Part shown: piece after piece, positions 20,139 through 62,561 of the stretch | Numbering within the stretch: the stretch's first letter is position 1 | Layout of the letters: the number at the start of each line of letters is the position of its first letter | Assembly (NCBI GenBank): GCA_008632985.1 | Contig: QPGO01000026.1 | Coordinates: 434,001 to 498,000, forward strand | Length of the DNA stretch: 64,000 bases | Direction of reading: 5' to 3' | Origin: Psammoneis japonica | Taxonomy: Eukaryota | Notes under the pieces: generated by a model | Databases searched by the model: none | The model's input: only the letters and a program-made list of their open reading frames with translations | Told to the model about the DNA's origin: nothing | Position numbers and translations under genes: made by a program

Positions 20139-22970
20139 CTAGCTCACAGTGCCGTCAGGTATCGGACTGGTGCAGACACCTGCACTTGTGATAAATGGAC
20201 GATCCAGGAACTCGGGAACTCCATACTTGTTCGTTACGAGAAATGGCGCAAGCTTCTCGAAAACCTTCTTCTTGCCAACCTTATTCTCTCCGAACGGTTC
20301 TTCGCCATCAAAATCAAAGTCAGGAACCTTTACTCGCTCTCCAATCTCGGCATCTACGGGTGGGCTAACGAACTTTACTTCCGTGTGGTCAGCGTTTGAT
20401 GCGCACAAAACCATGCCATGACTGGCAAAGCCAAGCATCTTTCGCGCCTTCAAGTTACAAAGGACCAAGACTTTGCGTCCCTCCATATCCTCAGCTTTCA
20501 TGTAAGGCTTCAAACCCGAAGCAATCTGTCGTGGTTCGTCCTCGCCGACATCAATTTCTTCGCAATAGAGCTTGTCGGCTTCGGGATGTTCCCACACCTT
20601 GTTGATTTTACCCACGCGAATGTCCAAAGCTGTAATGGGCGGACCTTCATATGTATCCTTTGGATCTGCGGCACCAGCAGCCGCGGCAGTTGCTTGAGAT
20701 GCAGAGCTAGATTCTTTTGAAGCCGTACTCTCGGCCTTGGCAGCGCCCTCTTTCTTGGAGGACTTCGGCTTTGGTGCGCGGAACTCCTCTGGGATAGTTT
20801 CGCAGAAACTCTTGAGTCTTTTCAAGCGCTCGTCGAAACCCACGATACCGGCGGCTTCGGCGTCCACCACGGAGTCCTCACTTGTAGCCATTTGCAACAA
20901 CGAAAGCTGTTTGGTCACGTCCTGCCCACTCATTTCTCCGGTGAGCGCTAACCTCACAGGATGGAATAGATGCTTGCCCTTGACTTTGCATTCCTTTGCT
21001 AGACTCTTCATATGAGCTTTATAAGCTTGCGGGTAAGAATAGGCCGAGCCACCCTGCTCGTTATCTTCAACAATACCCTTTCCTTGCGCGTCCTGGAACG
21101 CTTGGAGGGGCTGCGATGGATCCGGAGACGGAAAGTCTCCCGCCTCGACCTGTGCTATGATTTTTTGAGCGAGACCATAAAAGTTACCATCTTGAATCAT
21201 CTTCTTAGCATCGGCGTCTACCACTTCGTCAAAGGAAGCAGGGAGCCCGTATCCTAGCACAGTTTTGGCATTAAGGGCTGCATCCTTTGTCGTTTCCATC
21301 ATTTGCTTGGCAAGAGACGTCGCCGCAAAACACACGTCATCCACACGGGAGTCATCGGCATCAACACCCTCTTTGATCAAACCTTCCCATTGCATTTGAT
21401 CCTTTACGTGCCCAACTAAATCTTCCACAGGCATGGCCTTCATGTGCTGTGAGTTAACCCACTTGAGCTTGTCCATATCGAAAACAGATGGACTTTTCAC
21501 GACACGGTCAATGTCGAAAGATTCGATAAGCTCTTCACGCGAGAAAATCTCGTCCTCCGAACCATCGTTCCATCCCAGAAGAGCCAAGTAGTTAATCATG
21601 GCGTCGGGTAAGAACCCATCTAGCCTGAATTGATCGCAACTCGTGGCACCGTGACGCTTTGATAGCTTTTGTTTGTCCTCTCCCAAGATCAGAGAGCAGT
21701 GCGCATACCGTGGACGCGGAGCACCAAGCGCATCCAAGATGAGCCCCTGTCTGAGAGTGTTGGTCAAGTGCTCTTCCGCTCGCACAACGGTCGTAATACC
21801 CATGGTGGCATCATCCACCGCCACGCAAAAGTTGTAGACCGGAACGCCACTGCTTCTTAGCAAGATAAAGTCACCGACGGTTGCTTCCGCATCCCAAGAA
21901 ACAGTTCCACGCACAGCATCTTCAATCACAATACGTGAGCCGGGAGGCACCTTGAAACGAACGGTAAAGGGTGCGCCCTCGTCAAGTTTTTGTTTTACCA
22001 GCTCTGGATCGGCATCTCTCCAAGTACCATCATAACGAGGTGGGATGCCCGCGGCTTCCTGCTTTGCTTTCATTTCTTCCAATTCTTCCGGAGTGCAAAA
22101 GCATCGATAGGCCTTTCCTTCCTCCAGCAACCTGTTTGCCAAGTCTTTGTACAGCTGGGAGCGCTCCGATTGTCGATACGGACCGTATTTTGCAAGTGGC
22201 ACATCCGGACCCTCGTCCCACTCCAATCCCAACCATTTCAAATCTGCTAGCACCGACTCTTCAGATTCTGTAAAAGCGACAAAGTTGAATTTGAGTAAAA
22301 AATGAGACGCCGCGACAGAGAAATATTTAGATGGGACTACAACACATACCTTTTGTGGATCTGGCCAATCGGTATCCTCAACACGCAAAACGAATCCCGC
22401 CTCTGAATCTTTAAAATCCAACTGGCCCTTTTTCGCCATGAGCCAATTGTACAGGGCAGTCCGTGCTCCACCCACGTGAAGACTTCCTGTTGGACTCGGA
22501 GCAAACCTCATACGGGGTGGGCAATCCTCGACAGACTTTCCCTCCAAAGGAAAGATTCCTTCTTTTGGGAGCAAAGAGGCATCCTCCATGACTTGTTGTT
22601 CTGCCGTGCTACAAAGTGCTCCATCGCTGTAGGTAGGAGCAAGTCCCCGTTTCTTCAAACTCTCCATCATGGCCATGCCAGTATCGGACGTGATGGGAGG
22701 TCTCTTTCGGCGCAAACCGCCACTGCCTGTACCAAAAGCTCTGACCGATGACTTTGTCACAAAAGCCTGCATAATATTACAAACACATTTACGAGCAAAC
22801 GATGCTTTAGAAAGTCTGTTCCACGTGGATGACGACCATCATGGTTTCAAGAAAAAAAGTACTTCTCTGTCAATGAGTCAGAAGAACTTGAAACTTACCA
22901 TGGCCGTACGACCTCTCAATGGCATAACCACTGCTGACAGTATCACCATGGAAGCAATTGACAACCGCAT
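20139..22970 (-). CDS. gltX: Organellar (plastid-targeted) glutamate--tRNA ligase with C-terminal EMAPII/Arc1p-like tRNA-binding OB fold; exons 22970-22899, 22766-22350, 22267-20139
   Basis: RFAPSPTGSLHVGG (HIGH) and KLSKRHG (KMSKS) motifs, with C-terminal LDIRVGKI...HPEADKLY. Exon 1 is a signal peptide that splices to give TAMA-FV (ASAFAP-like). One base appears to be missing near 22368. Confidence 0.93.
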
Positions 22971-34868: not shown

Positions 34869-35449
34869 CACCTAAATCCTGTTCAAATCCTGTCACTCCC
34901 CAGTTTGCTTGAGGAGTCACAGAAACAGATTCGACTTCGGATGGAACGAAGTTCCAGAACATGAGGGGGCGGAGAAGGTCCCAGATTTGGGAGCAACCCC
35001 AATGCTTGCTGAGAATGTCAGCAGGGTTGCGGGAGCCTTCGATGAAGTGGAGCTCAAGGCAACCAGAGGCAATTGCCTCACACACACGGTGGAACGATGG
35101 TGCGGTGTGTCGTTTGTGCAACTTGGAGTGCGGGATGGTGGCACTGTCTACAACCGACTTGTTGTCACCGAACATGTAACTGACATTACGGATCGGGACG
35201 CCAAGGCAGCGCAGGGTGATGCGCAGGTCGACAATCTGCTCAACACAAGTCCTTGCGGCAACAAATTCAGACCCGCAGGTTGCAGTCTCCACGGTGGCTT
35301 GCTTCTCAGAGAACCAATCAGCCGGGAATTTGTTGAGGAAGTGGAGCATTCCCATGACAGAGCGTCCGGTGAGCATGCAATGGTGCAAGTTTGCATTGAC
35401 GCAGTGGGTGGTGGTGACACACTTGCCAAGGGGCGGTGGAGCGTCCTTC
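34869..35449 (-). mobile_element. Truncated copy of the same Copia family as 48100-54967 (RNase H end, PPT and first ~27 bp of the 3' LTR)
   Basis: Near-identical to ~54139-54718 (KDAPPPLGK...ADILSKHWG...ggggagTGACAGGATTTGAACAGG). Confidence 0.92.
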
Positions 35450-35997
35450 GGGTGGGGACCTTGCTGCAGAGGAGCTGCCCCTTGCCAGTCATCTTCACCT
35501 CCATGACTGACTGAGCAGCGATGTGAGGGTCTTTGTTCATCACCCTTGCTGCTGGCTCCTGCAAAGACACAGAGGATTGCTCTCTCAAAATGAAGGGCCA
35601 CCAGCAAATTGTGGCCAGGAACAGTGGCTCTTTTGGGAGTTCTCGAAGGTCCAGCCAACTCGTTTGCACAGAATCCACGCATCATGCGAACAAGGGATTG
35701 GTTTTTTGTTTTTTTCCCCGTGCATGTGCACAGTAAAAAGAAAAATGAAGCAGTTGTTGCGTTTTGTTGATGCTTCAAACAACGACGATTTCGAACAACA
35801 ATTGTTCAGAACATTCACGTGTCTGCGTGAACCAAAGATTTAAGAACAAAAACTCTTGTCAGCCAATCAGAATGCCCAGAATCATCAATCGTGGCGACTT
35901 GTTTTCTTTCTCACGAAAGACCGTAATGACTAAAACAAAGAAAAGCATTCTACACCTAAGAACAACAATTGTTTCACAGATCAGAAACCAGACTACG

Positions 35998-38267
35998 ATG
36001 CGTTTCAACGCCTTCCTTTTGCTGTCTATCACCGCTGCTGTGAGGGCTCAAGGTGCGCAACAGAGCTGGTCAGCAACAGTTGCCTCGTTGATTGATTCTT
36101 GACAACTCGTGGAAAGACATGTTGGCCACGCCCTTGTGATTTTCCTGAGGCTGCAAGTGCAACTTCTCAATCTTCTCATCTAACAACAGCTGTCCGATGC
36201 GCAGGCAACGGCCACCCCCAGATGCATTGCAAAGAGAGGGAGCAACGCGCGAGGTTCCCCGAATGTAACAAAGATGTGTCGATCGACGATGGCTCATTCG
36301 ACCCTGATGGCTTTCCCCTGAAGTCCCCAGTCCAAGAGCCTTCAGGACCCCACCTCCTGGGGACCACCTTGGTGACACTTGCCGTCACGGACAGAGAAGG
36401 CTTGACCAACACATGCAAAAAAGAGGTGACGATCACTCAACCGAGGAATGGCTTCTGCCCGACCGGCAAGCCACCTGTCATGATCTGCAAAAACAGGGAA
36501 GAAAGAGCTCAACTTCCAAACTGCACCAGGGATGTTTCGATCGATGACGGATCCCATGATCCCAAAGGGGGACAAGTCCGCCTACAACAGTGGCCTGAAG
36601 GGCCCTGCGGCATTGGAACCACGAACGTGACTCTTACGGCCACGGATGAAGATGGATCAACTGACACATGCAACGGAGCCGTGACGGTGCGATTTATCCC
36701 AGGCTGCCCCAACAAGCCTCCTGTTGCCAGATGCATCTTCAAAGTCAAGAATTCTAGGAACCACCCCGCCTGCAACGCATTTGCCTCCATTGACAACGGA
36801 TCGTTTGATCCCGAAGGTGACAGCATCACCAAAACCCAAGCGCATCGACCACCCTGCAAAGTCGGTCTTACCTTCGTGAACCTTGTTGTCACTGATGCCA
36901 GGGGTGCAACCGACACATGCAGGTCTGGCGTTTTTGTAAGAACGACAGATCCTCGATGCGTTCCTCCTTTTCCCATCGGAAACACGCCTCCTGTTTCTAG
37001 ATGCCAAAACAGGCTCATCAGGGCTCGGAATCCCCCTGCATGCCACGCGGTCACATCCACAGATGATGGGTCATTCGATCCTGACGGCGATCCCATCACC
37101 CTCGTTCAGATTCCTGCACCGCCACATGCCGCCGGAATGAGTTACCCGGTGACCCTCATTGCGACGGATTCGAACTTGAACAGCGCTGTGTCTGCGTGTA
37201 GAGTGACCGTAGTGGAGGGACAGGGCTGTCGCCCCCCTGTCGCCAGATGTCAAGACAGGTTTCGAACAGCGAAGAATCCACCAGCCTGCAACGCATTTGC
37301 GTCCATTAACTCCTTTTCCTTCAACCCTGACGGAGGACCTCTCACCAAAATTCAAAACCCTGCACCACGCTGCGGCATTGGCACTGCAGCGGCAGAACTT
37401 GCCGTCACTGATGCCAACGGTCACACTGACACATGCAATGCAGATGTGACAGTGAGAGGGGGATGAGGCTGCAAACCTCCTGTCTGCAAATGCAAAGACG
37501 TGACAGGCATCGCTGGTGACCCCCCGGACTGCAATTGTCCAGCATCAATTGATGACGGGTCCTTCGCCCGTGGAGGAGCTCCTCACACCACGACGCAGGT
37601 GCCTCCGAAACCATGCCCCATCGGCCCAAGCAAAATCGTGTCCTTGATTGTCACCAATTCTATTGATGGACAAACGGCCACGTGCTTGTGCAACGTGGAG
37701 GTTCTTCGGGGCGACAGGTGCACCGAAAACAGAACTCCCCATGCAATGTGCAAAGACGTGACCGTCACCGCGAACAACCCCCCAGAGTGTAATTCTCCAG
37801 CATCGATTGATGACGGGTCCTTTGACCCTGACGACGATCCGACAAGCTGCTCTCAGAACCCTCAAGAACCCTGCCCCATCGGTGAAACCCAAGTGACTCT
37901 TACCGTCACCGATGACAAGGGAGCAAACGATGCGTGTGCAGGAAAAGTGGTGGTTCTTCGAGGCGAGCAATGCATCAAAAACAATCCTCCCGTTGCAAAA
38001 TGTAAGAACGTGACAGTCGTTGCTGACAATCCTCCCTTTTGTCATTCTCCAGCATCGATTGACGGTGGGTCCTGTGACCCCGATGAGGGCGATCATCTTA
38101 GCCAGTCCCAAGACCCTGTTGGACCCTGTGGGATTGGTGACACGAGAGTGATTCTTGTCGTTGCAGATGACAAAGGGCACTCGGACTTGTGCTGCGCATG
38201 GGTCACTGTGGAAGAGGGGCTCGATTGTCATCACTGCATCGAGGAAGGCACCGAGCCGCCTGTGTGA
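35998..38267 (+). pseudogene. Hypermutated host gene: secreted protein with 8 tandem ~85-aa HYR/PKD-like Ig repeats; exons 35998-36052, 36190-38267; in-frame TGA at 37464-37466
   Basis: Signal peptide MRFNAFLLLSITAAVRAQ, then a GT-AG intron with a ctaac branch point. Repeats follow PPVxxC...SIDDGSFDPxGD...Px[C/H]xxG.T.V.L.VTD...C...V.V. ORFs 36099-37466 and 37500-38267 share one frame. About 1 Tyr in ~690 aa. Confidence 0.8.
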
Positions 38268-45524: not shown

Positions 45525-48099
45525 TGGATGCCAGTGAAATTGCGTGTAACTGGGAGTTTCATCTGCTCCTGTACATTCTGGACTCAATGTATAACAGAAA
45601 ACGAGCCGTTCTGTTCGCATCTGTCACATTAGTAAATACCTCCTTCTGGGTAGGCCCTGGAGATTAGCTAGCGAAACGACGAGACATAATGCGCAAAAAG
45701 AAGCATAGACTATAACAGCACCATGGATCTTTCGACACCGCTACGAAATATGAGAATCAATCGTCCGCATCACCAACAATCATGCACGGTAGATGATGCA
45801 TTTAGCAACTCCAAGAATTGTTTGAGACGTCAAGGCATTGAATGAATAGAGCCAAGATGTCGTTGTTTGTGAAAAAACAACAGCATGCTCCGTTGAAGGT
45901 GACAGAATGCGGGAACAAACTGGTGTGAAAGACTGACACAGATGATGATGGTGCTGCAGTCAGCACTAACAGCCAACAAATCCACTGGAGCAGCTGGAGG
46001 TTGTGAGTTCAGCAAAGACTTGGCGCAACCTGCAAAGAGCAGAACCTCCTTTGACAGAGGGGCACTGGTCTCCATTCCACATGAAACAAGGATTCAAGCT
46101 GCCAGAGTTGCAGCTGCTGCCATCCACACAACTGAGACAACCCGACTTAATGTGTGCCTTCATTTTGCTGATGGGGATTTTTTGCTTGCAGTTGACCTGG
46201 CTGGGAGCACTTCACTTGACCAAGCCTTGGCCCACATCAACTGAAGTGCTGGTGTTGCAATTTCCTGCACAGCACACCATTGCAAAAATCCTTGAATGAG
46301 TGTCCAGATGGAATGTGCTTTTTGTGCACAGCTGCAGTGGATTGTGCACATGATTGTGAGTGGGGGGTGGGGTGCTGGGTGGAGAATGAGGGCAGCATCA
46401 TGGCTTTGCAAAGTGAACCATGTGTCACCAGCTCAGGAGGTGAAGTTTGCATTGGAGGCAAGATGCATGGCAGAGCTGGCAAGATGTGGCTGGGTGGGAG
46501 AAGTCTTTGACAGAGGCTTGTGCAGGTGCAAAGAGCAAGCCTCAGCTTTGGGTAAAACAAAACCCACCGAGTGCCATTTTCTGTGCAGTTTTCAGCTCCA
46601 GACATTTTTGTCACCCCCCACTGGAGCTCCATTTTCTTGGCATTTGGTGGTCATTTGTCGCTCCAGTGACCAAACAAAAATTTGCTGTGTTTGCACATGT
46701 TGCTCCTCACATGCAAAGAACACTGCCATTGTGCATCACAAAACAAAAAGTGCTGGGTCACTTGCAGGCTTCTTCTGCAATTGGTGGCAGCGGCACTGAC
46801 GATGACAGCTGAGATGCAGAGAAGAAGTCACAATGCAGCACACATCTGTTGCCCTTCTGCTGAGTGCTTTGTTTCTGTCTGACTGCTCTTTTGCAGTCCT
46901 TTGATGGTGTTTTTCAACTCATTGTTCTCACCACACTTGTCTTGCGGTGGTTGAAACTCAACAAAAAATAACTTCTGCAACATGGCTGTGCTGAGCTCAA
47001 TGCATTGCATCATTTTTTGCCATCTGACAAGCTGCAAATCTTTCAATGTCATGGTTTGAAAGATTGTGATTGTCAACATGTCTGTTTTATTTTGGTTGAA
47101 GACAAACAAACACTTCTTTTGCTGCGCCACCATTGCTGCTGCTGTGTTCAACATTTTTCATTTGTCAGCTGGAGCAGTGGCTGAAGAGGCTTTGCCGCTC
47201 ATCTTTTTTTGAGGTTGCTGCTGTCACATGCTCACTGGGCTGCAGTTGTTGCACAATGCAAGTGCTTGTTTCGCACATTTGAATTTGCTGGTTGTGCCCC
47301 CACCTTTGCCCTTGTGTTTGATGGTGTGCTTGGCATTTGCATTTGTCATCTTTGGAGCAGCCAAAGAGACTGTTGCTGCCAGCTCATTTGTGCTGACAGC
47401 ACTGACTCTGGAGCACAGCTGTCATGCAGTGCAAAAATTTCCACAAAATGTTTGGCAAGCAACTTCAAGGAGTTGGGCAAAACATTGTGTCACTCTTGCA
47501 GTTGAGGTGTTGCAACAAGCCATTTCTGCAGCAAAAGCAGATTCTTCCATTTTGCTCAAGGCAATGATGCTGGGAATGTGTTTGGTGCCAGTTGTCAAAT
47601 TCAACAGCTCTGCACACATTGAATCAATGAATGGTCATTTTGAGAAGCACAAATCAAGTCCAACATGGTGCACAACACCTCTGAAGGACACAATTGACCC
47701 ACAAGAGCTGCAGACACATCTTGTGATTTGTGATTTGTTTGACATGACATCACATGAAGCACGGTCTTTGTGAGTTTCTGCAAAAGCTTGAGGATGAAAA
47801 GAAAATGGCTCTGCGTGGCACAAACTTTGGTGGTGGTTGCCATGGTGGAAGGAGAAGCAGTGCCTGGAGCAATGGAGAGGGCATTGTTGGTGCTGGCATT
47901 CTCAGAGGTGCCATCTGAGGGAGTGGCTGCTCATCCTTCAGTGTGAGCTGGGGGCAGGGTTTCCTTGGAAAGCACAATTCTTTGCTGCAACAATTTCTGT
48001 TTCTGCCAAAGCCAGTTCTGTGCTTGTGTTGGCAGCCAACTCCAGATTGATTCCCAGTTTTGACCACAGCACATTGCAGTGAAAATTGAGGAGAAGGAC

Positions 48100-48375
48100 T
48101 GACAGGATTTGAACAGGATTTGGGTGCGCGCGAAATGTCGCGCGCTGCCCAGTTTACCGCGCACAGTTTTGTGTGCTTTAGCTCCGCGCGTTCGCGCGCG
48201 ATGTAGTTTGCTTTTGAGCCACAAGGCTCACAAGAACAACAACAGCAGCCCGATTGTGCCGACTCACACGTCTTTCGGCTCCTGCAACGGTCTCTGAGCG
48301 GAGACTCATCTGCCATTTAGACAGCAGCAAGGAGTTGTTGTTTGAATTCTTGCCATTTGCCTTCAATTTCTGTCA
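48100..48375 (+). repeat. 5' LTR
   Basis: Colinear with 54692-54967, with about 20 differences, all transitions. Confidence 0.97.
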
Positions 48376-49293
48376 GATCAACAGTCTTGCTCATTGTCAA
48401 CCCATTGAGCAACCGCCATCATCGTTGTTGATCTGCCGATGACGCTGTCTCAATTCTGCGTGGACCTCTGCATGTGTTCTATGTACATCGGCAAGTCTGC
48501 GCGCATTCAACACCAGGGCATCGGCAGGAAGTTAACGTCACCGTCAAGTCTCCTTGCCGCTGGATGTCTGGATTGATTGTGCTGCCTTTGATCGCTGGAG
48601 ACATGCATTCAACGGTCACATCCAAGTCTGTCCTTGATCCTCATCCCTTGATGTGCCCATTCAATGGCCAACGGTCAAGAACCCCACATGTTCAAGGATC
48701 TTCATCGCTGAAGACATGTGTGTGCACACATCTTCACGGCCAAGAACTTGTGCCCACTCTTCGGACTGCGGTTTTGCTGCCTCTCTACAAGCACACCGAG
48801 TCCATTGCACCTGATCCACCCCGGACTGCTGGTGCTCTGCAGTTCCACTGGGTCCACGAGGACGACTGTGAGAGCAAGCAGCCGTGATTGCAGCCTGTGT
48901 TGGGGCGAGGGTGCTTTCCTGCGTTTGTTCGTTCGTCCACAGCACCTGACACCTGCGTCAACTGGCCAGCCTGATTGGGAAATCCAACCGACATAAAATG
49001 AGAATGGTTCGGGGGTCTTGTCCACCTCTGGTCAGCTCACCTGCAGGGGCTCGCAAGCAACCCAAAGCACCACCAGCTGCGGGTTCGGACGTGCCGGCAC
49101 AACTCTGCGGACCGGATGGGAAGTTTGGCACTTGACAACGAACGGGACAGCACAGCCCGGCGACTTCTGATTTTAAGGCAGCTCAAGATTTCAAGTCAAG
49201 TCCATTTCAAGTCAAGTCCATTCTCACCCAAGTTTCAAGTCCACCTTCGCTTCCCAACAAGAATTGCTCATCCTGACACCACTTTTGTCTGCC

Positions 49294-52200
49294 ATGGTTC
49301 TCACTCGTCAGAAACAAACCGATGGTTTCAAGCACGTTGTTGGAACCGTGCTTGCCCAAGGTGCTGGGAGCCCCCTTCATTTGGCTTTGGCCCAAGACGG
49401 CACGGACTCGCATCAAGAACCATCCACGTTCATGCCGTCCCAAATCGACTCGCTTGAGTGCGACAACGGCACTAATGTGATCCCTTTGCCCCGCGGTTAT
49501 AAGAACATGTTAGCAGCTCCAGTCAGTCTGTACATTGTCAAAGCACACGAAGGTCTTGACGTTGCCAATGACTCCTCGTTGTTCACGCATGACGAGCTCC
49601 TTGCCCACCACCTCAGCCCCGACTGCATGTCCTCTGTGTCCATCGGCAGCTCACCCCTCGCACCTCCGCATGTCACCAACCCGACCAAGGCACGCGACCC
49701 GGTGCGAGACTTCAAGCGAGGCATCAAGTGTGATCCCACCACTTTCACGGCTCTCAAATCCGACAAGCAGTGGCACACTTGGCACACCTCACTTGTGGCA
49801 CAAGCCCATGCCCAAGACGTCGAGTGCATTCTAGACTCGTCGTACAAACCGACCAGCCCCGAAGACAAACTGCTCTTTGCTGAACAGCAAAAGTGCATGT
49901 TTGCCGTCTTCGAACGCATCCTTCTCACCGACAAGGGCAAGGCTCTCATCCGCGAAAATGTGGGGTCTTCTGATGCCCAGACCGTCTGCCGCGCCTTGTC
50001 CGAGCATGCGCTTGCCTCCACCCGCGCATCTGTCGAGTCCTCCACCTTGCTCACGCACCTTGCCACCGCACGTCTTGGTGATGGCACTTGGAAAGGTCCA
50101 ACCCACGGGTTCATCCTTCATTGGCAAGACCAGTTGTGCAAGTGCGAGGCACTCATCCCGGCCAGTGACCACTTCTCTGAAGGACAGAAGCGCGTCATGC
50201 TCGAGAATGCCGCACACCCTGTCGAGGAACTCCGTGCTGTCAAGAACCAAGCTGATCAGCATCGTACGCAGAGTGGCAAGAGCCTCACATGCGATCAATG
50301 CTGTGGCTTGCTCCTCTCCGCGGCAGCTCAGTGCGACAACACGTTTCAACCCAAGACGACACCTCGAGCTCCCCGACGTGCCATGTGCGCACACGACGTC
50401 TGCTCCGAGGAACCATCCGACGATGTGTTCTACGACATTGACAGCAACATTGACGTCCTTCAGGCCAATGCTGCCCACACCCGTGGTCCCAGCCTCACCG
50501 GCGACCAATGGAAACGTCTCCCTCCCGACCACCAACGGATTTGGGATTTGTTGCCCCATTCCTCCAAGGCGATCATCCTTGAGCATTCTCGCCCGCCTCC
50601 CCGCAACCCGCGAGCCAGCAACTGCCATGAGTCCATTGCGGCCAACCTTCACGACCAATGCCTTGGGAGTGATGGTGATGTCAACTTGTCCAACACGACT
50701 CCTGCTGCCTCTGGTGATCCCGCTCCAAATGTGGGTGCCACTTTGGATGATCCCATCCTGGCGCACCTCACCAAGCGCAAGCCACTGCCACCCGGTGATC
50801 TGCAACGTCTGTTGTCTCCTGACCAAGCCCCCAACGCTGGTCGACCGGGGCCATCCGCCGCTCCCTCCACCCCGCCAGCTTCTGCCGATGACACAGAACT
50901 TAACGGCCGCACTTGCCGTCGCGCCAACAACCACAATGTCATTCACTCTGCCTCTGCTCATCGCTCCACATGCACTGGTGCTCCAGTCGATCGTGGGGCC
51001 AACGGCGGCATTGCTGGCGACGACGTTTGCATCATTGCATGCACCTCTTGCCAAGTCGACGTTCAGGGCATTGACGACCATCAATTGGTGGACATCCCCA
51101 TTGTCGCCACTGGTGCCGTCATTGAGACCCAGCGTGGTCCCGTCATCGCCATCCTCCATCAGCATGCATGCACGGGAAAGGGCAAGACCATCCATTCCTG
51201 CGGCCAGCTCGAATGGTGCAAACAGGATGTCAACGATTGCTCTGTCAAGGTGCCCAACGGCTTGCAACGCATTGCCACTCCTGATGGCCATGTCATCCCC
51301 ATTGACATCAAGGGCGGCCTGCCCCATGTTGCCATGCGACCTTACACTGACGCCGAATGGGACACCCTGCCCCATGTCATCCTCACCGGTGATGACACAT
51401 GGGATCCTTCCGTCCTTGATCACTCTGTCACTGACGACGACCAGTGGTGCGACGCGATCTCTGACCCACAGGACGATCCCACTGCCAACCCATTTGACGA
51501 ATGCGGCAACTGCCGTCATCGTGTCGTTGTCAACGAGACCATCATGTCCGCTTCCTTGTCTGCCGATCACGCGTCCGCCCTCGATGATCATCTCATTCCG
51601 AATGACGACGTGTTCTGCGAGTGTCATCCACACGCAATTGACCCCAAGGACAACGACGTTCCGCCCCCAGAGCGCACTGTGCAGCCCAAGGACCCCCCCT
51701 TCGAGTCTCTTTGGCCCTGCTTTGGCTTCCCACCTGCCGATGCGGTCCATCGCACTTTTGACTGCACCACGCAGTGCGCCCGCATGCCCGCCGGTACACA
51801 CCTTAAGAAGGCCTGCAAATCACCCAACCCCGCCCTTGATGTGCACCGCCGCAACGAGCCTGTCGCCACTGACACCGTTCATGCCGACACCCCGGCCGTC
51901 GACTCTGGTTGCACCAGCGCCCAACTGTTTGTTGGCACCGAGTCTGCCGTCACTGACGTCTGCGGCACCAAGACGGACAAAGAGTTTGTCAACACACTCG
52001 AGGATCAGATCCGGGAGCGTGGTGCCCCATCCAAACTCATTGGCGACCGTGCTCAAGTTGAGATCAGCAACAAAGTGCTCGGGATCCTACGAGCCCTCTT
52101 CATCTCCAGCTGGCAAAGTGAGCCTCACCAGCAACACCAAAACTTTGCCGAGCGTCGATGCCAGACCATGAAGCGCATGGCGAACACTGTCATGGATCGT

Positions 52201-54744
52201 TTTGGTTCGCCCGCCCACACATGGCTGCTGGCGCTCATGCATGTGTGCTTCACACTCAACCATGCAGCGTCCCCATGTCTCCACTGGCGCACGCCCCTCG
52301 AGACTCTCACTGGCTCCACCCCAGACATCAGCCCATTGCTTCGCTTTCACTGGTGGGAACCCATGTGCTTCCACCTCGATGACTCCGATTGGCCGCCCGA
52401 ATCCCGTGAGTTGCGTGGATGCTTTGTTGGCATTGCTGAGCACGTCGGCCACCAGATGACATTCAAGATTCTCTCTGACGAGACTCAGAAGATCCTCTGC
52501 CGGTCCAACGTGCGCTCTGCTGCCACCGATCCTGCCGTTCGAAACCTGCGTCTTGATCCTCCTGATGGGGAGCCACCTGAACCCATCATCAAATCTTGCC
52601 ATGACGACAATCCCGTTGATTCTCCTGATGGGGAGATCAGGACACCCAAGATGCCAGTTTTCGACCCGCAAGACATCATCGGACGCATCGTGTCACACGA
52701 AGGACCTCTGAAGCCTCATGACCCAACCTGGAAAGGCTCAAGCTACAACATCATGCTTGAATGGGAAAGTGGGGAGATCATGTCCGAGCCTCTTGCCATG
52801 ATCGCCAAGGATGACCCCGTCACCTGCGCCATCTATGCACGAGAGAACGGACTTCTTGACACGGATGGCTGGAAGTGGTTCCGCGCCATCGCGAGGCGCC
52901 AAAAGAAGCCACTTCGCATGGCCAACCAAGCCAAGCTTTGCTCCTTCCACACTGCACCTCACTGCAAGTGCGGATGCGAAGTTCCCCGGAACTGCAAACA
53001 CGCCATGTCACTAGACGAACGCAACGGCAACCGCAAATGGGGAGACGCAACTAATCTCGAGATGGACCAACTCGAGGAATACGAAGTCTTCCATGACTGC
53101 GGGCCCTTCGAGTCTTCCACTCCTCCTGCGGGACACAAGAAGATACGAGTGCACCCAGTGTACGACGTGAAACACGACGGTCGCCACAAGGCACGACTCG
53201 CAGCCGATGGGCACCTCACGGACGCACCTGTCGACAGTGTCTGCTCCGGAGCAGTCTCCCTCCGTGGCCTCCGGCTGATGATTTTCCTGGCCGAACTCAA
53301 CGAGTTGGAGACATGGGCCACCGACATTGGCAATGCCTGCCTTGAAGCCACCACCAAGGAGAAGCTCTACATTGCAGCCGGACCCGAATTTGGCAAACTC
53401 GAAGGACACATCCTTGTCATCCACAAGGCCCTGTGTGGACTGCGCAGCTCCGGTCTCCGCTGGCACAAGCGCTTTGCCGACTGCCTGCGAGCTGAAGGCT
53501 TCTTCCCCTGCCGCGCCGAACCCGACATTTGGATGCGCAGGAACGGCGACCACTGTGAATGCATTGCCATTTATGTGGATGACCTCGCCATTGCTGTGAA
53601 GGACCCTCAATCTTTCGTCGATGCTCTCACGGAAAAGCACAAGTTCAAGCTCAAGGGTGCGGGACCCATTGAGTTCCATCTGGGTTGGGACTTTTCCCGG
53701 GATCCCGATGGCACCTTGTGCCTGTCTCCGCGCAAGTGCATCAAGCGCATGGTCGACAGCTGCACCCGACTGTTTGGGGAGAAACCCACCACCAACGCCC
53801 TGTCACCTCTGGAGAAGGGTGACCACCCCGAACTGGACACTTCCGAACTGCTGGAGCCCGATGGCATTCACAAGTTCCAGTCCCTTGTTGGTTCACTCCA
53901 ATGGGCAGTGTCTCTTGGTCGAATTGACATTGCCACGGCCGTCATGTCACTCTCTAGCTTCTGAGCCGCGCCCCGTCAAGGCCACTTGGATCGTGCCAAA
54001 CGCGTCTGTGGGTGCCTCTCCAAGATGCGACACGGTGCTCTCCGCGTTCGCACGGAAGAGCCCGACCATTTGGATCTCCCTGCTCCGGCCTGTGAACGGA
54101 TGCATTCCGTGTACGGCGAAGCAGAAGAGATGATCCTGAAGGACGCTCCACCGCCCCTTGGCAAGTTCGTCACTGCCACCCACTGCGTCGATGCAAACCT
54201 GCACCATTGCATGCTCACCGGACGCTCTGTCATGGGAGTGCTCCACTTCCTCAACAAATTCCCGGCTGATTGGTTCTCCAAGAAGCAAGCCACCGTGGAG
54301 ACTGCAACCTGTGGGTCTGAATTTGTTGCCGCAAGGACTTGTGTCGAGCAGATTGTCGACCTGCGCATCACCCTGTGACACCTTGGCGTCCCAATCCGCA
54401 ATGTCAGTTGCATGTTCGGTGACAACAAGTCAGTTGTAGACAGTGCCACCATCCCACACTCCAAGTTACACAAGCAACACACCGCACTGTCGTTCCACCG
54501 TGTGCATGAGGCAATTGCCTCTGGTTGCCTTGAGCTCCAAATCATCGAAGGCTCCCGCAACCCTGCTGACATTCTCAGCAAGCATTGGGGCTGCTCCCAA
54601 ATCTGGGACCTTCTCCGCCCCCTCATGTTCTGGAACTTCATTCCATCCAAAGTCGAATCTGTTTCTGTGACTCCTCAAGCAAACTGGGGAGTGACAGGAT
54701 TTGAACAGGATCCAGGTGCGCGCGAAATGTCGCGCACTGTTTAG
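49294..54744 (+). pseudogene. Copia gag-pol polyprotein, hypermutated (TGA stops at 53962-64 and 54376-78)
   Basis: PR (VDRGANGG), IN (VATDT...D...SEPHQQHQNFAERR), a chromo-like segment, RT (KARL.ADG, DIGNA, KALCGLRSSG, YVDD) and RH (DA..., GSEF, GDN, ADILSK). About 11 Tyr in 1566 aa. Confidence 0.93.
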
Positions 54745-54967
54745 TTTGCCGCGCACAGTTTTGTGTGCTTTAGTTCCGCGCGTTCGTGCGTGATGCAGTT
54801 TGCTTTCGAGCCACAAGGCTCACAAGAACAACAGCAGCAGCCCGATTGTACCGACTTGCACGTCTTTCGGCTCCTGCGACGGTCTCTGAGCGGAGACTCA
54901 TCTGCCATTTAGACAGCAGTGAGGAGTTGTTGTTTGAATTCTTGCCATTTGCCTTCAATTTCTGTCA
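54692..54967 (+). repeat. 3' LTR
   Basis: Matches the 5' LTR; preceded by the PPT and followed by the TSD. Confidence 0.97.
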
Positions 54968-55501
54968 AGGACACAGGGCTGCTGGAGAGAGAATTTTTTG
55001 TGCACACAGTGGAGAAATTGACACTCTGGTGGTTGTGAAAGTTGAGCACAGCACAACATCAGCATGACAGCAGAGCAGAGAACAAATGCAAGCTCCAACA
55101 AAAACGACCAAGCTTGCATGCGTGCACCATTTTTCAAGCAAAAAAGATGACATTTCCACTGCCAGCAACATTTTGGCAAAATCACAACTCAAGTGCACCT
55201 GAAAAATGCAATGTTGTTTTGTGTGCACCTGCACACTTTGATTTTGGGAAGAAATGTTGAAGCAGCTCATTTTGGCCAAATTTGAAAAATGGGCCATTTG
55301 ATGAATGGAGACCTGGACATTTAAAAAATGGGGGGGACAGTGCTGTGCTGCATGCGAAATGCCGAAAAATTCCAAATCTTTCAGCGTTGCACCACGCGAT
55401 GTGCCGAGTGAGGTCAAATGATGCAGAGGTGCTTTAGAGACCACAAGCTTCAAACAACTAAAAAGAATCTGCCATCAAAATTGCTGAAAAGCAGCTGCTG
55501 T

Positions 55502-56128
55502 TTACATCACAGGCTTGTGCATGAAATTGGCCTGAAATCCAAAGGTGAGCCAGATGTCACAAGCTCGTTGCACGTCTGCGGTCGAGTTGACCTTGATGCC
55601 GCACTTGACGCATCCTGACAACTTCGAGACACGGACAGCCCATTCATCACCCGACCTGTCTGCTGCCACTGATGATGACTGAAACACTTCACATGCATTG
55701 AATTTACGATCATTCTGAGAAAAAATCAGCTGCAGCACAAACTGGCGTCCACTCTGCCATGCTGCCTGCGTGGATCGGCAACCTTGATCTGGGAGGTTGA
55801 GGAAGGACATTCTGCCATCTTCCTCTTGGAATTTCTGCTGCACCTCAAGCAGTCCACTTTTGTTGAAACAATCTGAGTCTGACACTGCTCCCGGGTAAAT
55901 TTCAAGCATCCCCATCCAACCGCAGGGTTGGATGTACACACCTCCCTTGCCCACACATCCCCCACAGCAATTGGAGTGAGTCAGGCACTGCAACTCAGCA
56001 TCTGATGGCTTGCCTGCCACCATTTTCACAAGGTGTTCCAGTGTTGTCATGGAACACAGTGCGCTTCCCTTCATGTCACCCAACCCATTTCTCACTCCGC
56101 AATTTTTCATCTTCAGCAACAGTTGCAT
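55502..56128 (-). pseudogene. DDE_Tnp_4-type transposase fragment
   Basis: KPSDAELQCLTHSNCCGG..GKGGVYIQPCGW...GAVSDSDCF...DQGCR...DRSGDEWAVR matches the Harbinger/ISL2EU pattern (T-Y-S-x-YY, G.VSD, D.GY, R...ERA) with Tyr changed to Cys/His. Confidence 0.8.
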
Positions 56129-56819
56129 GCCTCGGCCAGTTGCTGCGCGCCACCTTGACTGCTGCCATTTTTGATGCCAGCACCTTTTTCACAACCTTTG
56201 GCGTGGTGCTGCACTTGCTGGTGAGGCTGCTGATTGAAGCAACTGTTCTGTTCCATGCAAACTCGAAGCATGCATGCCATTCTTCATGCCAAGTGAGCGA
56301 GCCAGTTTCTCATGGCATGACTTCCAGCTGCTGTCCTTCTCATCAATTGGGGCCAGTGCAGCAGGATGTGTCGGCATGGTGGTGACTCGATGCATTCGAT
56401 GAGCAAGTTCACTGTTCTTGCAACGCCCGTTTCCGAAACAGCAAATCTTGCGCCCTGTGTGACGCTTGTGTTGCTTCTTCTTTTGCTTCTCCCTTTTGCT
56501 CCTCGTCATCACTCTACCCCTGGCCCTTTGCACCGACTTGGCAGCACCTTTTTGCTTTGCGGGTCTGCTGCGACTGCCCGATGCCTCTAGAACCGCAGCA
56601 ATGATGTCCCTTTGCACCAACGAATCATCCAAACACAAGCAGACGGCACTTGCCTCGGATCGCTCCCGCAGCAGTCAACAGCCGGCTGTTTCCCTAAAAT
56701 GGTCAAGGCTCTTGTGATCGATTTGCGTGAGACCAATTTCATCCTTTTGAAGATCTGTCAAGCAATCCACAGCAGCCGCCATTAAAGACCAATTGGGAAT
56801 CCCAATGGGAACCGCACTC

Positions 56820-57780
56820 AAAGCCGCATCGTCATTCGTTGTTTTGTTTTGTTGTCTTCACCTTTCATCACTTTCTGCACATGCTTGATCGATTTCTGCG
56901 ACAGATCAAAGCACCGACAGTCTCTCGGCAGTTTGTACACATGCCCCGCCGGAGGTGGTTTGGGTGTCATTTTGGATTTCTCCGTTCCAACAGTGCAATC
57001 ATTGAGCAGCTCTCGCATCGTTTTTGACTCGTCAATGGTGGCACAATGCTTTGTTGGATTCATGACCGTTCCCAGCCGTCGCAAGTCATCAACAAGACTT
57101 TCCTTCATCTCACTGTCAAGAGCTGGCTCTGCATTGCCCCATCATGCAGCAAGCTCATGGAGAGCATGTGCTGCAAGACCGTCCAACAACAACTGGGACA
57201 ATTTTTGCATGGCCGCCGGAACATGAACATCAACCACGCGCTCAGCACAGTGACTTCCTGACTTGCAATCACAGCTGCAACAAACCAGGCCTTCTTCTGG
57301 CGCAAACGCAAAACTGGATCGTTTCCTTGCAGATCTCTCCTTGGCAGTGACACTGGACTCAAGCCGGTTGATCTTCTCCTTCAACTCAGCCACCTGACCT
57401 TGCGGGAGCTCTGGATCTTGAGTCTTGTCCGTTGGAGCCAACAAATGTTTTCGCAACTGCATGGCATCAATTCTGGCTTGCTCTGATGCACAATGGCAGC
57501 CTTCTTCAAATGGTGTCGTGACATCAAGTTGTCAATCACGACAACGACGTCTACACTGGCGGCTGCAAATGGTGCAACAAAATCAACCATGGACTGCACA
57601 GGGCCGCTTGTGCAATGACTGCATTTCCGAGAGAGCCAGTTGGCATCAATGTACAAATGCGGCATTGCTCTACCTTGCACCGTTGCTTGGTGCCTCAGAA
57701 TGGTGCACAAGTCACCAAAGGATGTTCCATCTTTCTCGAGAAGGAAATGCAGCAATGATCGGCAACCTTTCATGCCCGTG
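56820..57780 (-). pseudogene. Second ORF of the DNA transposon: PIN/XPG-N-like nuclease remnant
   Basis: (M)GMKG at the start, then LYIDANWL and VVVVIDN..SRHHLKKAAI, resembling FEN1/XPG-family N-terminal motifs. Frameshifted. Confidence 0.5.
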
Positions 57781-58745
57781 GCGGATGAAGTGGTGCTCTG
57801 GCATGCTGCACAGTGACAAGACGAGATGACACAATCACACGCAACAAAGCTGATGGTTCATTGAGGTGAATGATTTGAATCGGCTGAGAATTTTTTAAGT
57901 TTTTTCTGCGCGTGCGCACTGTCCCCCGTTTTTTAAATGTCCAGGTCTCCATTGTGTGCACCCGCACACATCCCCCCCTGGAGCCAGAGGTGCAGTGTTT
58001 GGACACTTGGCAGAGGCTGATGAGAGGGGACACAATGGGAGATGCCCTGTGTGCTGAGAGAGTGAACATGGGCTCAGCCAAGGGAGCCAAAAAAGAAGTG
58101 CCTGCACACTTTTTCCTTCACTTGCCCCTTGCTTCTTCTGAAGCAGCAGCACTTGCTGCCAGCAGCACCAGTCTCATGAGCAGCCCCCAGTTTGATTGGT
58201 TGCACCGCTCATGATCAAACACACTTTTTGCGCAACTGGCACACTTTGGATGGACAAATTGCACTCCCAGCACTCATCCTTTTTTTGAACATGATGATGT
58301 CGTGTGTGAGTCACTTTGTTCCACAGCTCTTGCTCTCAAGCTGCACAAAGCAAGTCTGTGGTGCATGCGCTGGGTTCACTCCACAAGCTCCAGCTCTAGA
58401 AGCCACTTTGTCAGTTCTGTGCTGAGCCTTGTGCGCAGCACAGCCTCTGCACGGAGAGGATCTCCCACACCTGGGCAACACTGTGCATCACGTCCAATTG
58501 CTTGTGTTTCGCATGTGCTCATTGCTCATCATTGGGAGCCCCATTTTGATGGGTTGTTTTTCTTCAATTTTAAATGATGGCCATTGGAAAGCGGCACAGC
58601 ATTCTTGTTGCGGCCGTGCGACACTAAGTCTCACAGTCTGGTTGTTCGGTTCTGAGTGCTCATTGCCTTCTGTGTCTACTGGCACGAGAACTTCGTTAAG
58701 TCATTCTGACAGGGCAATGCCATTGAGTCCATCCCAAATGTCTTT

Positions 58746-59848
58746 ATGAGATATTTTTTAGACACTCCAGTCCACAGAAAAAAGAAAACGAGAACTCGCA
58801 ACCCCGCGCCCCCGGATACGGATGGATACAGACACGGAACGGAGCTTTGGGTTCATGATCCAGCGAGTGACACAACGGAAATAGCCAAGGACATTCGTCC
58901 AGGTCGCGATAGTTCGGTCCCAGAGTTTTTCACACCTTTGAATGGCAAGCTGTACTTTCGTACCCGGATAGACGAGCACGGAGAGGAGCTTTGGGTATAC
59001 GATCCTGTTGTTGGAAAAGCGCAAATGGTGCGCGATATTTTCGTTGGCAAAAAGTCGTCCGATCCAGCGTTTTTAACTCCATTGGATGGAAAGCTCTTTT
59101 TCAGTGCAAACGATAAAAAGACATGGATTTGAGCTTTGGGTCACGATCCATTGCGCCAGAAAACGGAAACATTGCTGGATCTCCAACCGGTTGATTCGTC
59201 TTCTTCTCCGCGTTTGTTGACCCCCATACGGAAAACAACAAACTGTACTTTACTGCCGATGATGGCCAAAGGCGTAAGCGTTTTTGTGCTGGAGCTGCTG
59301 CAGAACGATCGTGACGGCGACGGTGTCCAGGATAACGTGGACAACTGCCTGTCGGTGGCCAATGCGGATCAAAAGGATGCCGACGGCGACGGCATTGGAG
59401 AGGCTTGTGATATTTGTCCTTTTGAATCCAACCGTCTGCAAGTCATTAGCAAGCGACCCATGGGCCGATTCCGGATTCGTTCCAAGCCTCGATACAAGTT
59501 CTCATTGTGCCCATCCCACTTGAAGAGTAAAGCCACGGACACCAACGTTTCGAGGCTCTGGCTTTAAAGATTCGGTTAAAGAATTGTGCAAACGAGTTGG
59601 TAACGGACGATCTGGTTGGACTCGAGCCAACGGTGCATCGCATTGTAAAACTTGGCTTTGACGACAGGATTTGGTACACAAATGCCCAACTGCGTCTCTT
59701 TCCAAAGCAAGGCAATTGGGTGTTCAAACCTGAACTATGGCACAAGAACAGTCTTGATGGAGCGGGTTGCTACTTGGCAGAAATCAAGATTCGCCTGCCC
59801 GATGGACGAGGGGTCGTATACGCAAGCTCGCCGATTTATCTAAACTAA
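58746..59848 (+). pseudogene. Truncated tandem paralog of the ELW-repeat/TSP3 gene at 60564
   Basis: Three ELW repeats, a TSP3 repeat and the same C-terminal domain, spread over several frames. No signal peptide. Confidence 0.8.
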
Positions 59849-60563
59849 GACGACGATCTTTGGTTGGCAGATCGTGAGGTGGAGGAATCGGTCTCTCCAC
59901 TTGGGCTTTTCACTTCAATCACCCGCGCTCGAATTTCCGTGACGTCGCGGTTTTTGGTCTTGTGTCGTTTCCCATTCACCATCTTGAGCAGCTACAATAA
60001 GTTGCAAAGTCAAATGAGATTAGTAGTGTCGTGTGCGACGTGCGCGCGAGCTGAGAAGATTAGTCTTGCGTGCGTCCGTGGAATAGAGGATGGACGCAAA
60101 CATTGCTGCATTGCAGTAGGGGGCAGGCTATGGCACAATGAAACACTAAAGCAAGAATGCGAGAACTTGACGGTCCAAGTCATCTCACAATTTTCATCAA
60201 CCGTCGTTCGGCGTTTGGCTCATCGAAAAAGAAAAGGCACCGCGAATGTCATTTCGAAGGGCAATTGCAAAATGTCCTTAGAGACTTAGAGACTCAGTCA
60301 AACAAAAACCAGAACTCGCAACCCCCCAACCTGACCGCAATGCGAACCAAGGGATTACACACTAAAGTCAACGAACTCTCCTTGAAGCAAATCACACCAA
60401 CCAAGAAGAACTGTAAACAGCATTACACGTGCTACGGCAAAGTGACACCCAAACTCAAGAATATACGAGGATTCGACAGTCCACACCATCTCACAATTTC
60501 CTTTGCACCACAAAATCGCAAATTGTCTTTAGTCGTTGCTTTGGAACAACATAGTCAAGAAAC

Positions 60564-62561
60564 ATGACTGTACTCGGCTTGCTCTGGGGCTTGTCATACC
60601 TCATTGTTTTGTTTTGCAGCTCGGTCAACGCGAAAAACATTCGTGGAAAGACCTCCAGTGGAGGAATTCCGTCGTCGCTGGAGGACGAATTTGCTCCTCT
60701 AAGAAAAACGAGGACTGGCTACAATGAGGAGAGCCAAGTCAATGTCAATCGTGAGTTGGCAGAACGTAATCTAACGTCATCCTACTCCATCCGAGAGATC
60801 ACCGGGATAGTATTTCATATGCGTAGAACGGGGGTACCAATGGAGGGAAAGACTTATTTTCAATATGATGATGGAAAGCATGGAGAGGAGCTTTGGGTGC
60901 ACGATCCAGTAAGTGACACTGCGGAAATGATAAAGGATATTACTCCCGGTAGCGGCTCTTCAAATCCACGGTATTTCACAACCATGGATGGAAAGCTGTA
61001 CTTTCGAGCGACTGACGGAAAGCACGGTAGGGAGCTTTGGGTACATGATCCATTGAGTCAAACCACGGAAATGGTAAAGGATGTCAATCCTGGCAGCGGC
61101 TCTTCAGATCTAGCCTATCTGATGCCCATGTATGGAAAGCTGTACTTTCAAGCGACTGATGGAAAGCAAGGTTGGGAGCTTTGGGTACATGATACATTGA
61201 GTCAAACCACCGAAATGGTAATGGATATCAATCACGGTCACAAAAATTCGTTTCCATCGGAGTTGACGCCCATGTATGGAAGGCTGTACTTTCGAGCGAG
61301 TGATGAAAAGCATGGTTCTGAGCTTTGGGTACATGATCCATTGAGTCAAACCACGGAAATGGTAATGGATATCAATCCCGGTCGCAAAGATTCGTTTCCA
61401 TCGGACTTGACACCATTGGATGGAAAGCTGTACTTTCATGCAACTGATGGAAAGCATGGTTACGAGCTTTGGGTTCATGATCCATTGTCTCAAACGACGG
61501 AAATGATAAAGGATATCAATCCCTATTCATCCTTTCCAACAAATTTAACGCCAATGAATGACAAGCTGTATTTCAGTGCTAATGATGGAGAGCTTGGAGA
61601 AGAGCTTTGGGTTCATGATCCATTGACTCTAACGACGGAATTGGTAAAGGACATACGGCCCACGGGCAGGCGTTCGGATTCGAATCCAAGTTTGTTCACG
61701 CCCATGGATGGAAAGCTGTACTTTAGAGCTTATGATGGAAAGCATGGAAGTGAGCTATGGGTTCACGATCCATTGAGTCAAACGACGGAAATGGTAAAGG
61801 ATATCAATCCCCGTAGGAACTGGTCGGATCCATCGTGGTTGACTCCAATGAATGGTAGGCTGTACTTTCGAGCAAATGATGGAAAGCATGGAACTGAGCT
61901 CTGGGTACATGATCCCTTGAGCCAAACGACGGAGATGGTAAAGGACATCTGGCCCGGCAGCGGGTTGTCGGATCCACAGCGATTGACACCAATAGATGGT
62001 AAGCTGTATTTCCAAGCTCATGACGGAGCAAGCGTTAAGTATTTCGTGTTGGAACCAATTCATAATGATCTCGACGGTGACGGTGTGCCAGATAATGTGG
62101 ACAACTGCCCGTTGGTCCCCAATGCAAACCAAGGTGATCACGACGGGGACGGTGTTGGAGACGCCTGCGACGAAAAGTGCCCCATTCAAGTCGTTGCCAA
62201 GAGACCCATGGGCCGAGTCCGAATCCGCTCCAAACCAAGATTTAAGTTTTCTTGTCCCCCGTACTTGACAAAAAAAGCAGTGGACAGCAGCAAAGCTCTT
62301 GTTTTAAAGTTTCGATTGAAGGACTGCAGCAATGAGCTGGTCACGGATGCCGAACCCGAGTTGATGCGTATTGTAAAAGTTGGTAGCACACTCGTCAAGG
62401 ACACCGGCTTGCCGGGTGAAAAACTGAAGAAGAAGAAAGGAAACTGGGTCTACAAAGTAGGAAGTCCTAAAAAGCTTGGTGGTGCGGGATGCTATGTGGC
62501 GGAATTCAAGATTTCCAATGGCGGAGGAGGTTTCGCATATGCCAGCGCGTCGTTTTTGTAA
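60564..62561 (+). CDS. Secreted ELWxxDGT-like repeat (8 x ~48 aa) beta-propeller protein with thrombospondin type-3 Ca-binding repeats
   Basis: Signal peptide; GKLYFxAxDGKHGxELWVHDP units; [35 protein letters not shown]. Intact 665-aa ORF. Confidence 0.9.

Follow-up and report, generated by a model that had tools for sequence, protein, structure and literature searches.

How can the two long terminal repeats (LTRs) of a single retrotransposon, identical at insertion, come to differ by transitions only, and what does the answer say about the age of the element? The locus that raises this question lies in a 64,000-nucleotide stretch of Psammoneis japonica DNA (contig QPGO01000026.1, positions 434,001 to 498,000), referred to here as the window, and occupies positions 48100-54967 of it. 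The element is a Ty1/copia LTR retrotransposon, assigned as such because it combines an LTR pair bounded by an AGGAC duplication, a reverse transcriptase domain (RVT_2) and full-length polyprotein homologues. Very probably a copia element was inserted here into DNA already stripped of TA and CG steps and was afterwards hypermutated at TpA, with a slower decay of CpG alongside, each LTR being hit independently.

A repeat search and pairwise alignment of the window gave two direct repeats of 276 bp, both with TG...CA ends and 93% identical, which differ at 20 of 276 sites (7.2%), with 20 transitions, no transversions and no indels. The first-pass annotation of this DNA had reported about 20 differences (about 7%), transitions only and free of indels, with five example sites and a perfect target-site duplication; the alignment returned that count exactly, all five examples were found at LTR positions 57, 105, 159, 166-167 and 229-230, and the AGGAC duplication matches on both sides. 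The mutations arose after insertion, as had been claimed, because the two LTRs differ from each other and the 5-bp duplication is intact. The chance of 20 transitions in 20 differences is 3e-4 under a 2:1 ratio and 0.10 under the family's own transition share of 89%. Sorted by dinucleotide step, the differences comprise two TA/TG, two TA/CA, three reciprocal CA/TG, three CG/TG and two CG/CA; the steps common to both LTRs are 18 CG and 2 TA. Together the TA, CG, TG and CA steps hold 15 of the 20 differences against 144 of the 276 positions (Fisher p = 0.04), and three further differences are T's directly 5' of a mutated TpA (TTTA against CCCA; TTA against CCA). The fast TpA process and the slower CpG process together explain 18 of the 20 differences, and CpG decay is responsible for five of them, a quarter, which amends the earlier account.

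The direction of change was read from homologous proteins. A read-through translation of the element, with X at the stops, was aligned to 78 full-length homologues, and the 696 columns with at least 80% agreement were used; the element departs from the conserved residue at 100 of these. Tyr was conserved in 35 columns, which in the element now hold 19 Cys, 8 His, 1 Trp and 2 Phe, with 5 Tyr kept. At codon position 2, 19 of the 35 sites preceded by T changed A>G, whereas sites preceded by another base did so in 3 of 184 cases (Fisher p = 5e-15), and T>C at codon position 1 occurred at 8 of 35 sites before A against 3 of 55 elsewhere (p = 0.02). Among the 55 conserved Arg columns 41 are still CGN, and 11 carry CpG-type changes (5 Cys, 2 Trp, 1 His, 1 Gln, 2 TGA). 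Losses amount to approximately 80% of TpA steps against 21% of CpG steps (11 of 52 Arg CGN), a per-site rate ratio near 7; the LTR pair can serve as an internal clock for comparing the speeds of the two processes. The contrary ancestry raised in the earlier annotation, CG behind most TG and CA sites, does not hold at the coding sites, where 27-28 changes came from TA and 11 from CG. Since TpG and CpA both arise, among the Tyr changes as well as in the LTR pair, both strands were attacked.

A second, truncated family copy elsewhere in the window (Table 1) differs from its counterpart in the element at 35 sites, 31 of them transitions. The tip of this fragment had been described earlier as a third copy at 34869-34895; the T-T-A reported there, against T-T-G in the 5' LTR and C-C-A in the 3' LTR, is present, but it belongs to the end of a 584-bp fragment and there is no separate 27-bp piece. 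Five reciprocal CA/TG coding sites between the element and the fragment were polarised by the homologue codons. At 54379, where 76 of 78 homologues have Tyr, the codon is CAC in the element but TGC in the fragment, bearing out the proposal that a single TA was resolved in either direction. A CG ancestor is incompatible with the conserved Lys and Leu at 54279-80 and 54488-9, Arg in 76 of 78 homologues gives an ancestral CG at 54505, and the fifth site is without an assigned ancestor. The fragment covers, and thus directly polarises, one of the three reciprocal LTR sites. Under a simple two-class model the expected number of reciprocal LTR sites is approximately 2.4 from TA and 0.15 from CG, and the likelihood ratio in favour of a TA origin of the two unpolarised sites is roughly a few hundred.

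The TA steps that survive have a distinctive context. With both strands considered, a T stands 3' of the A at 10% of the surviving TAs of the element, compared with 29% in 10 intact relatives (p = 0.001), and the older stripped blocks have 7%; the share with an A in this place rises to 28% in the element and to 44% in the older stripped blocks. The order of loss is T-A-T first and T-A-A last, symmetrically on both strands, and the same neighbour rule on both strands is as expected of a sequence-specific agent. Counts of surviving TAs in the stripped versus the spared DNA of the window were 0 versus 68 for ATAG, 1 versus 74 for ATAT and 1 versus 84 for GTAT, and TTAA was over-represented (24 versus 51). 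The near-absence of ATAG, ATAT and GTAT points to a T-A-T preference. A sense-strand bias was considered on the basis of the excess of Tyr>Cys (19) over Tyr>His (8; p = 0.05), but the interior has fewer TG (529) than CA (617) steps and the 3'-neighbour rule could explain the excess; no such bias is claimed.

The loss of TA has sharp limits in the window. In the element the TA observed/expected ratio (O/E) is 0.13, that of CG is 0.83 and the GC content is 0.57. Eight of nine host open reading frames (ORFs) have TA O/E of 0.48-0.66 and CG O/E of 0.83-0.96, with normal Tyr content; the exception is a HYR-domain ORF at 36096-37466 (TA 0.19). A 1-kb map showed three states with sharp edges, namely normal gene blocks, blocks poor in TA only, and blocks poor in TA and CG. 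The blocks stripped of TA only are at 23-24 kb, 35-40 kb, the element itself and 55.35-58 kb, and those without both TA and CG are at 1-7, 9-11, 15-17, 40-42 and 45.97-48.1 kb (TA O/E 0.0-0.16, CG 0.07-0.13). TpA loss is confined to such blocks and the neighbouring genes are spared. The element sits within an end-stage block, stripped of both steps, which flanks it on both sides. The simplest reading of the block states is a time series in which TpA is lost first and CpG after. The HYR ORF (+ strand, E = 1e-10) lies in a TA-only stripped block and encodes 0.2% Tyr and 5.5% Cys; it may be a host-like gene or pseudogene caught by the process. The block at 55355-58000 has TA O/E of 0.08-0.10 and CG O/E of 0.4-0.66, a stage like that of the element, and none of its eight ORFs of at least 110 aa matched Pfam.

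Other copies of the family were found in sequencing reads. Four runs from one study contain the stretch, with no RNA data set listed as containing it, and the variable places listed are 40 of 438. In one run, X1, 13,464 contigs map on the element, with a summed depth of approximately 47,000-116,000 in the interior, 250,000 in the LTRs and 74 in the left flank, so that LTR depth is about 3000 times that of the flank, although depth is not copy number; a family size on the order of a thousand copies is suggested. Family variation in X1 comprises 383 transition places against 45 transversion places (89% transitions). This copy departs from the family majority at 32 of the 40 listed places, with 12 GC>AT changes (9 at CpG), 18 AT>GC changes (7 at TpA) and 2 transversions. 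The G at 54834, in the 3' LTR, is private, every other contig that covers the place reading A. Flank contigs of X1 have no differences from the window.

Relatives from metagenomes give the background level of TA. Because 80 related copia loci have a median TA O/E of approximately 0.70, with only one below this element, the value of 0.13 is not native to the family. One metagenome contig of 1319 bp, L013, has a TA O/E of 0.05, and comparison with its closest relative, L008 (88% identical), gave 42 steps that are TA in L008 and TG or CA in L013, with one in reverse. Among full-length homologues P0107 stands out, with Cys or His at 14 of 55 Tyr columns where none of the other 77 has more than 4, and among 120 short matches examined P0165, P0198 and P0218 have Cys or His at 4-6 of 8 Tyr columns. 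The same signature is thus present beyond the window. The loss of TpA and the decay of CpG are separable, because some related metagenome loci, in other organisms, lost CG but kept TA: L034, L026 and L075 have CG O/E of 0.03-0.05 and TA O/E of 0.61-0.82. With L035 and L077 added, the ranges for these loci are 0.03-0.18 for CG and 0.48-0.82 for TA. A search for near-identical copies with a 177-aa piece of the reverse transcriptase gave a best match of 74% identity in a protein collection from which the organism's own copies are absent.

In the sequence of events favoured here, the element would have been inserted into non-gene DNA already nearly devoid of TA and CG, and two context-specific transition processes would then have acted on the double-stranded element, separately in each LTR. 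The fast process would convert TpA to TpG or CpA, that is, A>G on either strand of the palindromic TA step, and would sometimes take an adjoining T or A along (TTA>CCA). The other, about 7 times slower per site, would convert CpG to TpG or CpA; given the CG>TG/CA changes in the element, this component is probably decay of the cytosine-methylation kind. A reciprocal CA/TG pair would represent one TA hit on opposite strands in the two LTRs. The data show the spectrum of the changes, the direction they took, their limitation to blocks that leave adjacent genes untouched and their timing after insertion. Beyond this, the TpA process may well be enzymatic and aimed at silenced or foreign DNA, and its likeliest chemistry would be the one proposed for Bigelowiella natans, deamination of adenine in DNA to inosine, which is read as G.

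The closest alternative keeps the signature and the targeting and replaces the chemistry, the thymine of TpA being modified (for example to a hydroxymethyluracil-type base) so that it mispairs with G and yields T>C. The TA step is palindromic, both strands give the same products, and A>G cannot be told by sequence from T>C on the opposite strand; the hydroxymethyluracil of dinoflagellates is said to favour TpA and TpC. This chemistry is considered unlikely in this organism. The LTR differences might instead have been imported from other LTRs, the family being very large, through gene conversion or recombination, and so reflect polymorphism of the family. This would suit the LTR depth in X1 (again, not a copy number) and the clustering of the differences, which form six adjacent pairs where 1.4 are expected, as well as the loose ends at 48147 and 48153, where other copies carry the TTTAG variant found in the 3' LTR. 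Such import would nevertheless leave unexplained the 89%-transition family polymorphism at TA and CG steps; the shared TTTAG is the TA-bearing ancestral state, the 3' LTR alone has the G at 54834, and the element shows an unbroken duplication and no indels. Little credence is given to this import.

An ordinary old element, altered by neutral substitution and CpG methylation decay alone, is less credible still. It would account for the five of 20 differences that set CG against TG or CA and for the two stop codons, both CGA>TGA, but not for the lack of transversions and indels among the 20 differences, nor for 27 conserved Tyr changed to Cys or His against 11 Arg changes, nor for a TA O/E of 0.13 where CG stands at 0.83. 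A transition-only pattern would also be yielded by fungal-type repeat-induced point mutation (RIP), by ADAR-like RNA editing before integration or by a sequencing or assembly artefact, and the preprint on B. natans (10.64898/2026.01.13.699255) states that ADAR prefers to edit an A preceded by a U. RNA editing would mark both LTRs alike and on one strand only, whereas this element has LTRs that differ, and its sense strand shows both A>G and T>C; RIP would create TA and lower the GC content, whereas here TA is destroyed and GC is raised. An artefact is at odds with host ORFs that keep their TA and Tyr content, and with X1 flank contigs that match the window throughout. These three explanations were rejected, together with CpG-only decay, on the Tyr versus Arg changes, the direction of change, the mismatch between the LTRs and the spared host ORFs, and the probability left to the three is negligible.

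Some observations weigh against TpA hypermutation with slower CpG decay as the full account. The main contrary result for a strict limitation to TpA is that 8 of the 18 listed AT>GC departures from the family majority are not at TpA; either the process is not strictly TpA-limited here, or the majority states mislead. The family state is covered, among the 40 listed of 438 places, for one of the 20 LTR sites. Not all LTR differences lie in TA, CG, TG and CA steps; five of the 20 do not, and neither process accounts for those at positions 83 and 143. A probable TA origin is given to two of the three reciprocal LTR sites by rate arguments alone. The best read run may perhaps be the assembly's own data, and so would not be independent proof against an artefact. 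A Pfam search of 74 ORFs from the stripped blocks left 73 without a match and gave one HYR match, which gives little indication of what marks the blocks for attack. The chemistry of the TpA process is something we infer from the pattern of substitutions.

The nearest known system is that of B. natans (Mettrop et al., bioRxiv 10.64898/2026.01.13.699255). Of 231 mutations that its mutation-accumulation lines showed in two viral regions integrated in the genome, 230 were A>G or T>C, and all of these lay at TpA. According to the same preprint the TpA>TpG/CpA rate in the integrated viral DNA is about 1000 times the background, and the targets are integrated giant-virus and virophage DNA; activity in some lineages only belongs to the features that define this kind of process. 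The likeness extends to A/T>G/C transitions at TpA that yield TpG or CpA, to a limitation to blocks of foreign DNA with the remaining genome normal, to the TpA-poor and CpA+TpG-rich clusters left behind, and to an enrichment there of transposon-type Pfam domains among TpA-depleted coding sequences. The systems differ in that de novo events were measured there and the changes here are deduced from sequence; the host there is a chlorarachniophyte (Rhizaria) and here a diatom-like stramenopile; and the targets there are viral inserts and here an LTR retrotransposon of roughly 1000 copies. Depletion there is mild (Rho 0.45 in the region from nucleocytoplasmic large DNA viruses) against 0.13 in the element and 0.0-0.05 in the older blocks here; the loss of CpG is coupled here, and none is described there; and every event reported there is at TpA, whereas some neighbouring and non-TpA sites change here. 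The window bears a long-term footprint of the kind of process recently described in B. natans. No report of TpA hypermutation in diatoms was found in the literature searched, which was screened by title or abstract, and the B. natans preprint was the sole report of the signature found. If real, the process would add a second, very distant lineage with a mutator aimed at TpA in mobile DNA, and would not be the curiosity of one alga.

It is conceivable, and is put forward here as a tentative suggestion, that the genomes of diatoms are defended, block by block, by a DNA adenine deaminase, perhaps a descendant of ADAT2/TadA, which rewrites TpA in silenced mobile DNA, prefers T-A-T, spares T-A-A and works alongside CpG methylation. 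In the natural target of the ADAT2/TadA tRNA enzyme the adenine, so far as is known, always follows U. If a deaminase defence does operate in both a stramenopile and a rhizarian, it would be an old and widespread eukaryotic genome defence and the mirror image of fungal RIP. RIP, which consists of C>T changes, mostly CpA>TpA, and is duplication-dependent, resembles the changes described here in being a transition-only hypermutation that cripples mobile DNA after insertion (in Neurospora and others). It runs in the opposite direction, raising TA and AT, whereas here TA is erased and GC goes up; dependence on duplication, a feature of RIP, is not part of the claim made for the putative hypermutation of this element. 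The CpG methylation decay of transposons is matched by the CG>TG/CA changes in the element (11 of 52 Arg CGN, five LTR differences and both stops) and by the near-total loss of CG in the older blocks, but it explains a minority component only.

These processes bear directly on the age of the element. The LTR divergence of 7.2% corresponds to a Kimura two-parameter distance of 0.078. When the TA, CG, TG and CA steps are masked, five differences remain in 132 positions, or two once the T's that adjoin hit TpAs are left out as well. The earlier contention that a clock-based LTR age would be inflated agrees with these counts, and with the lack of transversions and indels. A clock based on raw divergence would overstate the age of the element several-fold at least, and LTR-divergence dating is unreliable in such genomes. 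That hypermutation inflates LTR-based ages has been recognised for fungal RIP (PMC4522978).

The reading frame gives a misleading sign of youth. The annotation had described an ORF without a frameshift, and a single frame does span 49264-54690; it is not intact, since TGA codons stand in frame at 53962 and 54376 and 73 residues that are well conserved in the 78 homologues are missing in frame near 52683. Other copies have extra sequence at the same deletion point, as shown by loose ends at 52682 in runs X1 and X4. The further argument that the element must be young since its ORF is open is weak. TAA and TAG are lost when TA is erased, and no stop can arise from that change, so that dead copies are left with open frames and an open frame is a poor sign of youth. 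A six-frame count in the element gave 266 TGA against 46 TAA and TAG together, and because TAA and TAG have been erased, long ORFs occur on both strands. These ORFs overlap within 48100-54967, an example being the 656-aa ORF at 49831-51801 on the minus strand. On either strand, stripped DNA thus yields spurious ORFs that mislead gene callers and calls of intact elements, and stripped copies escape homology searches, as the 73 of 74 stripped-block ORFs without a Pfam match illustrate.

The features of the element and its surroundings are listed in Table 1. Polyprotein relatives from aquatic metagenomes, of approximately 1860 aa and 50-71% identical, aligned over the whole of the element frame. 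A Pfam search of the element and of an intact homologue, P0003, gave RVT_2 as the sole match, with no integrase family matched, and a search of PDB sequences with P0003 gave no matches. A short purine run, GGGGAG, abuts the 3' LTR, and no primer-binding site was identified in the element. The element resembles diatom Ty1/copia elements in its RVT_2 domain, 5-bp duplication, short LTRs and polyprotein relatives of about 1860 aa, abundant in aquatic metagenomes; it differs in that this copy is dead, with two stops, a 73-codon deletion and most of its Tyr codons lost.

Table 1 Features of the copia element, its flanks and the second family copy in the window
Feature	Position	Strand	Basis or remark
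Left target-site duplication, AGGAC	48095..48099	+	Same 5 bases outside both LTRs
5' LTR, 276 bp, TG...CA	48100..48375	+	Direct repeat, 93% identity
gag-pol frame, ATG at 49294, single frame but broken	49294..54690	+	Translation; end-to-end alignment with homologues of ~1860 aa
In-frame internal deletion site, ~73 conserved residues	52682..52683	+	Gap against 78 homologues; loose ends in other copies
Copia-type reverse transcriptase domain, Pfam RVT_2	53125..53754	+	E = 1.3e-22, residues 1288-1497 of P0001
In-frame TGA at conserved Arg (CGA>TGA, CpG decay)	53962..53964	+	Arg in 77/78 homologues
Second in-frame TGA at conserved Arg	54376..54378	+	Arg in 72/78 homologues; 584-bp fragment still CGC
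3' LTR, 276 bp, TG...CA	54692..54967	+	Direct repeat; G at 54834 private
Right target-site duplication, AGGAC	54968..54972	+	Matches left copy
Truncated second family copy, 3' internal part and first 27 bp of LTR	34869..35452	-	94% identity to 54135-54718
Left flank, stripped of TA and CG, sharp edge near 45970	45970..48094		4 TA, 12 CG; dense TA/CG up to 45967
Right flank, same stripped block continued	54973..55350		1 TA, 2 CG in ~380 bp

The genes of the window suggest a diatom host: they are long uninterrupted ORFs, and include a glutamyl-tRNA synthetase ORF at 20139-22838, for which the nearest protein clusters are mostly from Bacillariophyta, and a neighbouring ORF with DUF6824. A tandem array at 60836-62032, with a spacing of approximately 144 bp and 72-77% identity, lies inside an ORF at 60555-62561 that has a thrombospondin type 3 repeat match, and repeats related to this array occur at 58833-59607.

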